From an uncultured bacterium (lineage in GTDB: Bacteria; CAIJMQ01): a stretch of DNA of 14,661 nt. Position numbers and translations under genes: made by a program. Below the pieces are notes generated by a model, which was not told the origin of the DNA, did no database searches, and saw only the letters and a program-made list of their open reading frames with translations. Where the stretch lies: the NCBI GenBank assembly GCA_964573245.1, contig CAZNJA010000014.1, positions 13,045 to 27,705 on the forward strand, in the 5' to 3' direction. Shown in pieces: positions 1 to 2,375 of the stretch (positions within the stretch are counted from its first letter, which is position 1; the number at the start of each line of letters is the position of its first letter).

Positions 1-6
1 AGTTAT

Positions 7-59
7 GGGCGATTAGCTCAGTTGGTTAGAGTGCTCCGACGTAACGTCGGAGAGGTCAG
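7..59 (+). pseudogene. Truncated tRNA-Val-derived copy: 5' half intact, anticodon arm replaced by a perfect palindrome, T-arm and 3' acceptor strand missing
   Basis: Nt 1-34 are identical to 109-142 (6-nt leader plus tRNA 5' strand and D-arm). CTCCGACG-TAA-CGTCGGAG (34-52) stands where the anticodon arm should be. GAGGTCAG (52-59) matches tRNA 158-165, and similarity ends there. Confidence 0.85.
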
Positions 60-114
60 CATGTTTAGAGTAATGATAGATTTGCTGAGTAGGAGAGCAA
101 GAAATCGTAGTTAT

Positions 115-191
115 GGGCGATTAGCTCAGTTGGTTAGAGTGCCACGTTGACATCGTGGAGGTCAGAGGTTCAAATCCTCTATCGCCCACCA
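115..191 (+). tRNA. tRNA-Val(GAC), 77 nt, CCA encoded
   Basis: Acceptor stem GGGCGAT/ATCGCCC, D-arm GCTC-AGTTGGTTA-GAGT, anticodon arm CCACG-TT-GAC-AT-CGTGG (anticodon 149-151), T-arm AGAGG-TTCAAAT-CCTCT, 3' end ACCA. Confidence 0.97.
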
Positions 192-199
192 GTTCAAAA

Positions 200-469
200 A
201 TGAGAGGATTTGTATACATATTGCATAGTGCAAAGAATGACAGGTATTACATTGGAAGTACTAATAGTGTAGATAGAAGGTTAAAAGAACACATTGCTGG
301 GATTGTAAAAGCAACTCGTAATCTTCGGCCACTATTGTTAGTATTTCAGCAAGAATATAAGACACTATGTGAGGCAAGGCAGGTTGAGCGAAAGTTAAAA
401 AGGTTCAAAAGAAGAGATATAATTGAAAGAATAGTAAAGGGAAAAAAGATATTAATAACAGGCGGTTAG
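200..469 (+). CDS. Stand-alone GIY-YIG nuclease family protein (89 aa, UPF0213/SLX1-like)
   Basis: Motifs FVYIL...RYYIGST...RRLKEH...EARQVERKLK match the GIY-YIG core. The ORF-track start at 155 lies inside the tRNA, so ATG at 200 is the plausible start. Confidence 0.9.
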   Translation: MRGFVYILHSAKNDRYYIGSTNSVDRRLKEHIAGIVKATRNLRPLLLVFQQEYKTLCEARQVERKLKRFKRRDIIERIVKGKKILITGG

Positions 470-576
470 CTTAATTTGGAGTGCTCTCCGAAGAGTCCGT
501 ATACTCGTCCTTTCGGAGTCATCGGACCGACGTTATGTCGGAGAGGTCAGAGGTTCAAATCCTCTATCGCCCACTA
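460..576 (+). pseudogene. Degenerate tRNA-Val copy with a palindrome-replaced anticodon arm and a nested palindromic insertion
   Basis: AGGCGGTTAGCTTAATTTGGAGTG (460-483) aligns to the tRNA 5' end GGGCGATTAGCTCAGTTGGTTAGAGTG. Nt 543-574 are identical to tRNA 158-189 (32 bp). The copy ends ACTA instead of ACCA, and 484-543 holds two hairpins. Confidence 0.85.
487..526. repeat. 40-nt imperfect palindrome with TCCGA...TCGGA ends
   Basis: TCCGAAGAGTCCG (487-499) is complementary to CGGAGTCATCGGA (514-526) at 11 of 13 positions, with a 14-nt loop. Confidence 0.7.
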
Positions 577-594
577 ACTAAAAAGGATAAAAAT

Positions 595-626
595 TAGCCA
601 ATCAATATATTGGCTGTTAGGTTTTT
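595..626 (+). terminator. Possible weak intrinsic terminator or regulatory hairpin just upstream of thrS
   Basis: AGCCAAT (596-602) pairs with ATTGGCT (609-615) around a 6-nt loop, followed by GTTAGGTTTTT. The U-tract is not directly adjacent to the stem. Confidence 0.35.
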
Positions 627-2375
627 ATGAAACAGAACCCTCAAAATGTTCCTCTTGAAGTGTATAGGCATAGCGCTTCACATATTCTTGCCTGCGCTGT
701 TAAAGAACTCTACTCTGATGTAAAACTTGCCATAGGTCCTGCTATTGAGGACGGTTTTTATTACGATTTTGACACCTCTCATAGATTTGTTCCCGAAGAC
801 CTTGTCAAGATAGAAAAGAAGATGCAGGAAATAATAAATAAAGATGAACCTTTTGTAAGAGAAGAGATATCCAAGAAGGAAGCCGTAAAAATCTTTAAAG
901 AAAAAGCCGAAAAATACAAAGTGGAACTCCTTGAGGAAATAAAAGACAAGAAAGTTTCTCTGTACAAATCGGGTGATTTTGTTGACCTTTGCAGAGGGCC
1001 CCATGTCGAATCTACCGGCAAAATAAAAGCGTTTAAATTACTTAGGATTTCAGGTGCTTACTGGAGAGGTAGCGAAAAAAATCCCATGCTTCAGAGGATA
1101 TACGGGACTGCGTTTTATAATGATAAAGAATTAAAAGATTATTTAAATAAACTGGAGGAAGCCGAGAAAAGAGACCATCGTAAACTGGGTAAAGAACTTG
1201 ACCTTTTCAGCACAAATACGGAAGTTGGTACTGGTCTTATACTATGGCATCCGAAAGGCGCTTTAATCAGAAGTATAATGGAAGATTATTGGCGCCAGAG
1301 TCATAAAAAAGGCGGATACGAATTTGTTTTTACTCCGCATATCGGAAAAGCTTCTCTTTGGCAAACCAGCGGTCATTTGCAATGGTATAAGGACGGCATG
1401 TATTCGCCGATTGAAATTGATGAAGTTCAGTATTATATGAAACCGATGAATTGCCCGTTTCATATGATGATTTATAAAAACAGCGTCAGAAGTTACAGGG
1501 AGTTGCCAGTAAGGTTTGCGGAACTCGGAACAGTTTATCGTTATGAGAGGACTGGTGTTCTTCACGGGCTTTCGCGTGTAAGGGGCTTTACGCAGGACGA
1601 TGCGCATATATTCTGTTCGCCTGAACAAGTGGTAGAAGAAATAACAAGAACGTTGAAGTTTTGTCTGTCATTCATAAAAGCATTTAATCTTCCTGCTCCG
1701 TCAATGGAATTAAGCGTGCGCGATCCGTCTAACCCGGATAAATATGCCGGCAGCGACGAAAATTGGCAGAAAGCGGAAGAAGCATTGATAGCCGCTCTTA
1801 AATCGCAGGGATTAACTTATAAAAGAATGGAAGGCGAAGCTGTTTTTTACGGTCCCAAAATAGACATGAAATATTACGATGCTTTGGGACGGGCATGGCA
1901 GGGTTCGACAATACAATTTGACTTTAATATGCCTGAAAAATTTGATTTGTCTTATGTAAGCAAAGAGGGCAAACAAGAGCGCCCGTATATGATTCATAGG
2001 GCATTATATGGTTCGTTGGAACGTTTTTTTGCGCTTTTGATAGAACATTACGGCGGAGCTTTTCCTCTATGGCTTTCGCCTGTTCAGGTAAAAATTCTTC
2101 CGATTTCCGAAGATAATTTGCCTTATGCCGAAGAAATATATTCAAAAATGAAAGAAGCTGATATAAGAGTTGAATTGAATTCCAAAAATGACACCCTCGG
2201 TTATAAAATAAGGGAATCTGAAAAGGAGAAAACCCCTTATATAATAGTGTTAGGTAAAAACGAAGAAAAAGAGAAAACGATTTCCGTAAGAAAAAGAAAA
2301 GAAGGCGACAAGGGTAAAATCGCTGTAGAAGAGTTCATTGAGAATATAAAAAAAGAGATAGAAAACTATAAGTGA
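627..2375 (+). CDS. thrS: Threonine--tRNA ligase (short form, apparently lacking the N-terminal TGS domain)
   Basis: Motifs RHSASHILA, GFYYDF, DLCRGPH, GAYWRG, RDHRKLG, KPMNCP, RVRGFTQDDAHIF, FYGPKID, TIQFDF and HRALYGSLERF; 582 aa. Confidence 0.98.
   Translation: MKQNPQNVPLEVYRHSASHILACAVKELYSDVKLAIGPAIEDGFYYDFDTSHRFVPEDLVKIEKKMQEIINKDEPFVREEISKKEAVKIFKEKAEKYKVELLEEIKDKKVSLYKSGDFVDLCRGPHVESTGKIKAFKLLRISGAYWRGSEKNPMLQRIYGTAFYNDKELKDYLNKLEEAEKRDHRKLGKELDLFSTNTEVGTGLILWHPKGALIRSIMEDYWRQSHKKGGYEFVFTPHIGKASLWQTSGHLQWYKDGMYSPIEIDEVQYYMKPMNCPFHMMIYKNSVRSYRELPVRFAELGTVYRYERTGVLHGLSRVRGFTQDDAHIFCSPEQVVEEITRTLKFCLSFIKAFNLPAPSMELSVRDPSNPDKYAGSDENWQKAEEALIAALKSQGLTYKRMEGEAVFYGPKIDMKYYDALGRAWQGSTIQFDFNMPEKFDLSYVSKEGKQERPYMIHRALYGSLERFFALLIEHYGGAFPLWLSPVQVKILPISEDNLPYAEEIYSKMKEADIRVELNSKNDTLGYKIRESEKEKTPYIIVLGKNEEKEKTISVRKRKEGDKGKIAVEEFIENIKKEIENYK

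Follow-up and report, generated by a model that had tools for sequence, protein, structure and literature searches.

A conserved hairpin in place of the anticodon arm in tRNA-Val copies beside a small GIY-YIG nuclease gene

The stretch of DNA considered here, hereafter the window, comprises 14,661 nucleotides (nt) of contig C14 from the 1.46-Mb genome of an uncultured bacterium (G000). Near its left end, a gene for a small nuclease of the GIY-YIG family lies between a working tRNA-Val(GAC) gene and a defective copy of tRNA-Val (copy 3), and another defective copy (copy 1) precedes the working gene (Table 1). The anticodon arm of both defective copies is replaced by a short palindrome. The palindrome is probably a hairpin module of a cassette that includes the nuclease gene and resides in tRNA genes, and the same replacement recurs beside homologous nuclease genes in other phyla. 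The gene at 115-191 is the only Val(GAC) gene detected by ARAGORN in G000 and the only call of this program in the window region; neither copy 1 nor copy 3 is called.

The tRNA-Val locus and its palindrome

The intact gene reads GAGTG-C(CACGTTGACATCGTG)G-AGGTCAG across its anticodon arm. In copy 1, the 5' part of the tRNA is followed by C34-TCCGACGTAACGTCGGA-G52 and then by AGGTCAG (53-59). An exact replacement of the arm by a perfect palindrome with an 8-bp stem and a 3-nt loop, proposed in the initial annotation from the letters of the window, is what positions 34-52 contain. The likeness reported for copy 3 is also read directly from the sequence: without the 41 nt at 487-527 this copy has C-TCCGACGTTATGTCGGA-G, identical to copy 1 at 17 of 19 positions, and the boundaries of the swap are equal in both copies. 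One of the two differences is the central base (A or T), which alone orients the palindrome, and the other is a C>T change leaving a G.T pair. As single-stranded DNA (ssDNA), the hairpin of copy 1 has a folding energy of -8.9 kcal/mol (z -4.7, with 0 of 200 shuffles as good) and that of copy 3 has -5.2 kcal/mol.

The nested insert of the initial annotation is a module of 41 nt. It resembles modules on contigs C46 and C70, and it is shared with the cassette of a congener, G002, where it sits elsewhere, its homologue being found upstream of the nuclease gene. The Rfam tRNA match of copy 3 skips 50 nt at the site of the anticodon loop, and in copy 1 both the T arm and the 3' strand of the acceptor are missing. 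Neither copy possesses the cloverleaf, 7-nt anticodon loop and anticodon of a decoding tRNA.

Table 1. Features at the left end of the window (window positions) and, in the last row, sites of a second repeat family in G000 (contig:position)
Feature	Position	Strand	Basis
Copy 1, 5' part (tRNA-Val positions 1-28)	7..34	+	28/28 identity to intact gene
Palindrome CTCCGACGTAACGTCGGAG (TAA loop on an 8-bp stem) replacing the anticodon arm of 17 nt	34..52	+	sequence; fold; genome copies
AGGTCAG stub of the variable region; tRNA similarity stops here	53..59	+	sequence
Spacer, last part of the 108-nt tandem unit after 5' half, hairpin and stub	60..114	+	period-108 units upstream
Working tRNA-Val(GAC), encoded CCA	115..191	+	ARAGORN; Rfam 72 bits
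Linker GTTCAAAA, working tRNA to nuclease start codon	192..199	+	kept as GTTCAAAG in G002
89-aa single-domain GIY-YIG nuclease gene	200..469	+	Pfam GIY-YIG 1.7e-13
Copy 3, read as the disabled resident tRNA-Val: degenerate 5' part, hairpin modules, perfect 3' part	460..573	+	Rfam tRNA 32.1 bits
41-nt hairpin module ("nested insert") within the 5' strand of the palindrome	487..527	+	folds as own hairpin
Second palindrome copy CCGACGTTATGTCGG(AG)	527..543	+	identical 17-mer variant on contig C46
tRNA-Val 3' part, then resident flank TAACTAAAAAGG and thrS (627-2375)	543..574	+	32/32 identity to intact gene
Repeat ACCCCGTTAGAGATAGC ... GCGTAAAC	C2:20619, C5:32903, C6:22240, C13:15614, C17:9847, C22:7837, C80:3024

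The nuclease of 89 amino acids (aa) consists wholly of one GIY-YIG domain, with the Pfam match spanning residues 3-71, and possesses no separate DNA-binding domain. Residues Y6, Y17, R27, H31 and E63, which correspond to the catalytic positions of GIY-YIG enzymes, are invariant among 6 homologues. Labels in NCBIfam and a protein atlas are limited to generic GIY-YIG ones, and a sub-threshold match to a group I intron endonuclease was found in NCBIfam. The palindromes at 34-52 and 527-543 flank the open reading frame (ORF) on both sides, and its stop codon TAG (467-469) coincides with T8-A9-G10 of copy 3. G000 encodes four GIY-YIG paralogues with at most 42% identity to this protein; two of them abut tRNA-Ser and tRNA-Gln and are accompanied by other hairpins. 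At C1:9943-10391, a paralogue lies between a 36-nt 5' copy of tRNA-Gln(CTG) and the intact tRNA-Gln. This copy spans the anticodon, jumps to the 3' end of the tRNA and a terminator-like hairpin, and carries no CCGA hairpin.

The defective copies are more numerous than the two originally counted, since further ones lie just upstream of the window. That part of the contig contains tRNA-Cys, tRNA-Leu(TAA), a 5' fragment of tRNA-Val and at least two more identical 108-nt units, each consisting of the tRNA-Val 5' half, palindrome, stub and spacer. The array encloses a 100-N scaffold gap (C14:12945-13044), right after which the window begins, so that the number of units on C14 is a lower bound. The tRNA-Val 5' fragment at C14:12663-12787 carries a 76-nt nested-hairpin insert in its D loop and stops exactly at the start of the anticodon arm; in the defective copy of G002, the D loop is interrupted at the same position by a shorter insert whose ends agree.

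An assembly artefact was rejected for both the swap and the tandem unit. Further assemblies show both of them, and the 108-nt unit recurs head to tail on a contig of an independent public run (X4); the public runs holding the stretch are represented by DNA contigs. In a 322-nt contig of a related strain (run X2; 13 differences in 238 nt), copy 1 is joined directly to the nuclease start, and the ORF continues into a tRNA-Val 5' end; the order hairpin-swapped copy, ORF, tRNA-Val is the other of the two layouts, here for the same gene. The C-terminal end of the nuclease in this strain differs from that of the window (comparison with 200-437). A contig joint 157>543 in X2 could be an allele with an intact arm on the resident flank. 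It has 32 nt common to both sides, which makes a k-mer chimera possible, and it was not used; neither was the joint 31>539 (side 25).

The 13 copies of TCCGACGTNNNGTCGGA per strand of G000, against 0 for the reversed control, exclude chance as the source of the palindrome. A simple chimera with the arm of a genuine tRNA was considered from the beginning. None of the palindromes overlaps one of the 40 ARAGORN tRNAs, and the replacement is therefore not such an arm, that of tRNA-Leu(TAA) being different as well. An intron or a split tRNA was rejected too, as no anticodon is left after removal of the palindrome.

Recurrence within the genus and across phyla

Sites corresponding to the tRNA-Val locus were compared in three congeners (G001, G002 and G003) and in a representative of the sister genus (G004). 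G001, G003 and G004 have empty sites: one tRNA-Val(GAC) gene, intact, stands ahead of CCCAC-TAACTAAAAAGG and thrS, and no nuclease gene is found there. The sites of G000 and G002 are filled: the nuclease gene is present, and the copy on the resident flank is the hairpin-swapped one. Copy 3 occupies the place of the lone tRNA-Val of G001, G003 and G004 and shares its downstream flank. An encoded CCA with GTTCAAA(A/G) precedes the nuclease gene in both G000 and G002 and is missing from the empty sites. Likewise, the 3' end of the working tRNA with its CCA and GTTCAAAA is common to the G002 cassette and missing from them. As judged from these flanks, copy 3 is the disabled resident tRNA-Val, and the working gene owes its 3' end, with the encoded CCA, to the cassette. 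The cassette is therefore polymorphic for presence and absence among close relatives, with a clean empty site.

The defective copy in G002 is full-length and located at the same place; it contains a D-loop hairpin insert and a plain palindrome. The working tRNA-Val of G002 (L057 1-50, G002:C86) has the T arm CACTGG/CCAGTA, the resident type being AGAGG/CCTCT, which hints at a foreign origin of this copy.

The swap is not restricted to tRNA-Val. In G000, the replacement covers exactly the arm in defective copies beside tRNA-Ala(CGC) on contig C10 (TCCCGACGTTACGTCGGGA) and tRNA-Ala(GGC) on contig C58 (CTCCGACGTGACGTCGGAG), and both copies are truncated in the D loop. The same swap is present beside tRNA-Ala in G003.

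Homologues of the nuclease were scanned using one genome per species and a four-sequence alignment; 441 relatives were found, and the best 80 loci were retained. These loci span KSB1, Gammaproteobacteria, Elusimicrobia, Saccharibacteria and other Patescibacteria, Omnitrophota, Verrucomicrobiota, Chloroflexota, Bacteroidota, Planctomycetota and others. The closest homologues beyond the genus belong to other phyla and show 42-63% identity (by genome, 62% in KSB1, and 54% and 42-43% in two others), compared with at most 42% for the four paralogues of the same genome. Each of them has an adjoining tRNA, a hairpin-swapped copy and a related hairpin.

A tRNA lies within 1.2 kb of the ORF in 68 of the 80 loci, the nearest one always on the ORF strand, and 12 loci hold none. 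In 62 loci a same-strand tRNA is at most 100 nt from the ORF (behind it in 48 and before it in 14). The ORF and the tRNA overlap by exactly 9 nt in 18 loci, where the stop codon is U8-A9-G10, and further loci show overlaps of 10-22 nt. Since the stop lies inside the following tRNA or look-alike, processing by RNase P would sever it from the mRNA.

Arm swaps were detected with 10-nt anchors on each side of positions 27-43, allowing at most 1 mismatch. Swaps with both flanks kept were found in 22/80 loci in genes for Ala, Asp, Gly, Val, Ile, Lys, Arg, Thr and other tRNAs, beside about ten other tRNA species in all, although a few of the listed cases are artefacts spanning two copies. The replacing hairpins measure 16-23 nt and have the invariant core CCGA...TCGG. 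The identical 19-mer stands beside a tRNA-Gly/GIY-YIG cassette in an Elusimicrobia metagenome-assembled genome (L090). The reading of the swap as a hairpin-for-hairpin replacement and not random decay has held, with the palindrome family replacing positions 27-43 beside three tRNA genes in G000 and in the 22 loci of other phyla. By these alignments, the swap is a regular feature of the cassette.

The hairpins with the CCGA...TCGG core are 20-fold denser next to the ORF ends (2.45 per kb) than elsewhere in the loci (0.12 per kb), and 31 of the 40 best-matching loci contain them, compared with 8 of the 40 weaker ones. The variant TCCGAC..GTCGGA occurs in 4-27 copies in four of five unrelated genomes with close homologues and once in the fifth, compared with 0-1 copies in the controls. 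The hairpin class (CCGAC or CCGAT) changes 6 times on the weakly resolved protein tree on which this count rests, as opposed to 10.2 times with shuffled labels.

The defective copies differ with their position relative to the ORF. Upstream of it, a full 5' arm is present in 15/21 copies and a full 3' arm in 2/21, with a short 3' stub of at most 16 nt in 18/21. Downstream of it, a full 3' arm is present in 8/14 and a full 5' arm in 1/14. These two layouts would be the products expected of one crossover between a unit consisting of 5' part, hairpin, 3' part, linker and ORF and a resident tRNA gene.

A candidate mechanism and its rivals

The explanation preferred here, with a probability of about 0.6 for the whole, is that the palindrome is a conserved hairpin module of a GIY-YIG cassette residing in tRNA genes, with the tRNA halves and recognition by the nuclease taking part in its mechanism. 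The cassette would consist of the 89-aa GIY-YIG gene, a tRNA look-alike with positions 27-43 converted into a CCGA...TCGG hairpin, and real tRNA sequence that sustains one working gene. It would have entered the lone tRNA-Val(GAC) gene, which lies ahead of thrS. The working tRNA would now have the cassette 3' end with the encoded CCA, the linker and the nuclease gene, and the original tRNA-Val would persist behind the nuclease gene as copy 3, with a hairpin for an anticodon arm. The tandem 108-nt units, copy 1 among them, may be amplified left-end fragments of this design, made of the 5' half, the hairpin and a short stub.

The Ssn proteins are described as GIY-YIG nucleases with a single domain; they bind a hairpin repeat in ssDNA and cut upstream of it, and their genes are flanked by the NTS/SRM hairpin repeats (Chenal et al., Nat Commun 2025; PMC11893778). 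By analogy, the present nuclease may bind its hairpin in ssDNA and cut nearby, and the tRNA halves beside the hairpin may act as homology arms for integration. Hairpin recognition by the nuclease combined with integration via tRNA homology appears to be the most likely mechanism. A crossover in the 5' half would give the order defective copy, nuclease, tRNA; a crossover in the 3' half would give tRNA, nuclease, defective copy, which is the layout of the window. The window is assigned to this second kind, and the flanks of the empty sites fit the assignment. The 322-nt contig of run X2 shows the first kind for the same gene. Within the genus, the hairpin may also have spread alone into the tips of other hairpins.

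Several observations weigh against this explanation. The contigs C10 and C58, which bear defective copies, hold no nuclease gene. G003 has 18 palindromes while its best nuclease match is only 42% identical (the genome is 81% complete), and G001 and G004 have 3 and 2 palindromes without a cassette at tRNA-Val. A CCGA...TCGG hairpin is found near the ORF in only 39 of the 80 loci, and only 3 of the 33 branches of the protein tree are well supported. Binding and cutting of the hairpin by the 89-aa protein are inferred from Ssn. Among solved structures, the nuclease is nearest to the UPF0213 proteins 1zg2 and 1ywl, its best PDB matches. The published degenerate SRM motif of Ssn has 0 matches in window positions 1-700, and genome-wide it matches 2 times, compared with 1-4 in five shuffles, with none of the matches overlapping a palindrome. 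No circular or excised form of the cassette was seen. Gene conversion with the adjoining intact gene could have produced the exact boundaries of the arm as a side effect. The distribution of IS200-type transposase genes, discussed below, belongs to the same side.

The palindrome is also a dispersed repeat. The genome-wide search advised in the initial annotation showed the motif to be multi-copy in G000 and its relatives, and a motif confined to this locus was thereby dismissed. The sequence CCGACGTNACGTCGG occurs 17 times in G000, 3 in G001, 9 in G002 and 18 in G003. Beyond the genus, the sister genus has 2 copies, two genomes from the same class have 2 and 1, and the remaining 34 genomes sampled have none. 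A relaxed palindrome family gives 60 matches across G000, many of them inside long ORFs.

The 6S RNA of each of the four congeners (G000:C86:446-631; L079-L081) is capped by CCGACGTNACGTCGG or a close variant. The apical hairpin conforms to CCGAYG...CRTCGG in all of them, and the exact palindrome is found in G001. Several variable hairpins of RNase P RNA belong to the family (L083-L086: G000, G004, G001 and G003). One of them is absent from G000 and present in the other three with differing sequences, those of G003 and G004 being of the palindrome family; the RNase P RNA of G003 contains an additional insert of about 80 nt. The family is also found inside the cobalamin riboswitch of congeners, and the palindrome caps longer intergenic hairpins. 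Family members within long open frames (469-934 aa) at C2:22740, C6:22240, C13:15615, C16:11083, C1:12219 and C23:12188 suggest in-frame insertions into protein genes. A second repeat family of G000, ACCCCGTTAGAGATAGC ... GCGTAAAC, often bears the palindrome at its apex, and insertions within insertions are also seen (Table 1). A different outer hairpin in G003, CCCGCAGAGTATC ... GATGGTTTACGTTGCGGGG, likewise carries the palindrome at its apex.

Such dispersal is what would be expected if the palindrome were an autonomous repeat of this lineage, similar to a repetitive extragenic palindrome (REP) or a miniature inverted-repeat transposable element. It would be moved by another enzyme, such as a Y1 transposase of the REP-associated tyrosine transposase (RAYT) type, or by template switching during replication and would land in the tips of hairpins already present. 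Spare tRNA copies would be one of the places that tolerate it, and the GIY-YIG gene would just make those copies. This is supported by the palindromes at the apex of 6S RNA, within RNase P RNA and in the riboswitch, and by the absence from G000 of the RNase P hairpin borne by G003 and G004. Matches to Y1_Tnp (IS200-type) are found solely in G000, G002 and G003, that is, in the congeners with at least 9 palindromes, and a family-like hairpin precedes one Y1_Tnp locus by 48 nt. However, all 7 Y1_Tnp matches are on contigs devoid of a strict palindrome. Among the five Y1_Tnp loci inspected, that hairpin is the only related one and lies on one side only, so that no Y1 (RAYT) gene flanked by the palindrome was found in them. 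A repeat specific to one lineage is disfavoured because the same core accompanies the GIY-YIG gene in unrelated phyla, where it is enriched 20-fold at the ORF ends. This alternative is considered unlikely. Of the meanings first proposed for the swap, that of a miniature palindromic element, with the swap as its landing site or mark, comes closest to the cassette explanation, provided that the element is assigned to the adjoining GIY-YIG gene.

It is considerably less probable that the swap serves immunity or breaks homology. It would spare the copy from the nuclease or stop the direct tRNA repeats from deleting the cassette, and the hairpin would have no role in recognition. The swap does cut a direct repeat of about 60 nt into shorter blocks, and free-standing GIY-YIG homing endonucleases such as SegB are reported to cut tRNA regions of cassette-less genomes (PMC2330249). 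However, any target in the arm remains available because the working copy keeps its intact anticodon arm 300-400 nt away. Moreover, an arbitrary filler would not be expected to be conserved as CCGA...TCGG over phyla and tRNA identities or to be multi-copy elsewhere. The removal of a nuclease site, another of the meanings first proposed, therefore fits poorly.

Least probable is selection of the hairpin for a working, non-decoding tRNA-shaped RNA, i.e., a decoy or an RNase P/RNase Z handle trimming the nuclease mRNA: for copy 3 this is conceivable, as it keeps the acceptor and T arms (3' part 32/32; 32.1 bits in Rfam), has a full-length version at the same place in G002 and contains the ORF stop, which 5' processing would take off, but copy 1 and most of the defective copies elsewhere miss the 3' or 5' half and can form no cloverleaf, and ARAGORN passes over copy 3 as well as copy 1.

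Relation to known systems and significance

The cassette resembles Ssn in its single-domain GIY-YIG protein of about 90 aa, the gene flanked by hairpins on both sides, the multi-copy hairpin and the protein-hairpin pairs found over phyla (PMC11893778). Unlike in Ssn, the hairpin does not follow the published SRM motif and its copies number in tens, those of Ssn being counted in hundreds (PMC11893778). Furthermore, tRNA look-alikes carry the hairpin and a tRNA gene adjoins the nuclease gene, and the word tRNA is absent from the Ssn paper (PMC11893778). The statement that the present nuclease may work like Ssn is a reasoned analogy and does not imply membership in that family.

SegB has an extra DNA-binding part. 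It is a free-standing GIY-YIG homing endonuclease encoded in the tRNA gene cluster of phages T4/T6 (PMC2330249, PMC13096335). The systems are alike in that a GIY-YIG gene stands among tRNA genes and its presence differs between close relatives, and the nuclease-linked local amplification of tRNA-region segments may parallel the 108-nt units (PMC2330249, PMC13096335). In contrast, SegB appears as a larger phage enzyme cutting double-stranded DNA, whereas here a one-domain protein of 89 aa accompanies a hairpin-swapped tRNA copy in bacterial chromosomes.

REP elements with RAYT transposases, which include GTAG- and CGTC-tagged palindromes, are likewise described as short dispersed palindromes located in intergenic hairpins and inside genes (PMC3733652). 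Unlike REP/RAYT, the gene flanked by palindromes encodes a GIY-YIG nuclease here, and no flanked Y1 gene was found in the loci inspected.

Certain junctions also recall integrative elements that target tRNA genes, one junction restoring the tRNA and the other holding a displaced fragment with the resident flank. According to Williams in 2002, such elements reportedly leave partial tRNA copies at their ends. Unlike them, the cassette has no integrase and measures only about 0.4 kb, and the arm of its displaced copy is replaced by a conserved foreign hairpin and not just truncated. Hairpin-swapped tRNA copies beside small GIY-YIG genes were not described in the full-text literature searched, which leaves subscription-only papers outside.

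More tentatively, the cassette might represent an undescribed minimal selfish element of about 0.4 kb that occurs across phyla. Such an element would pair an 89-aa GIY-YIG nuclease with a cognate CCGA...TCGG hairpin in a tRNA look-alike, use the tRNA halves as homology arms and occur in reciprocal layouts with the ORF ending on the invariant U8-A9-G10. From it, hairpin repeats might spread through the genome and enter ORFs as well as the tips of riboswitches, 6S RNA and RNase P RNA.

If the cassette explanation is true, tRNA genes of many phyla host a tiny nuclease-plus-hairpin element of fixed architecture, which standard annotation presents as a "GIY-YIG family protein" and unexplained tRNA fragments. 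Hairpin-specific single-strand nucleases of the Ssn type would gain a definite target in genomes and a plausible route of movement. In metagenome-assembled genomes, tandem tRNA fragments and a class of tRNA pseudogenes would be accounted for; dispersed palindromes inside essential RNAs and proteins would have a source. Finally, the loci would provide natural protein-hairpin pairs for ssDNA tools.
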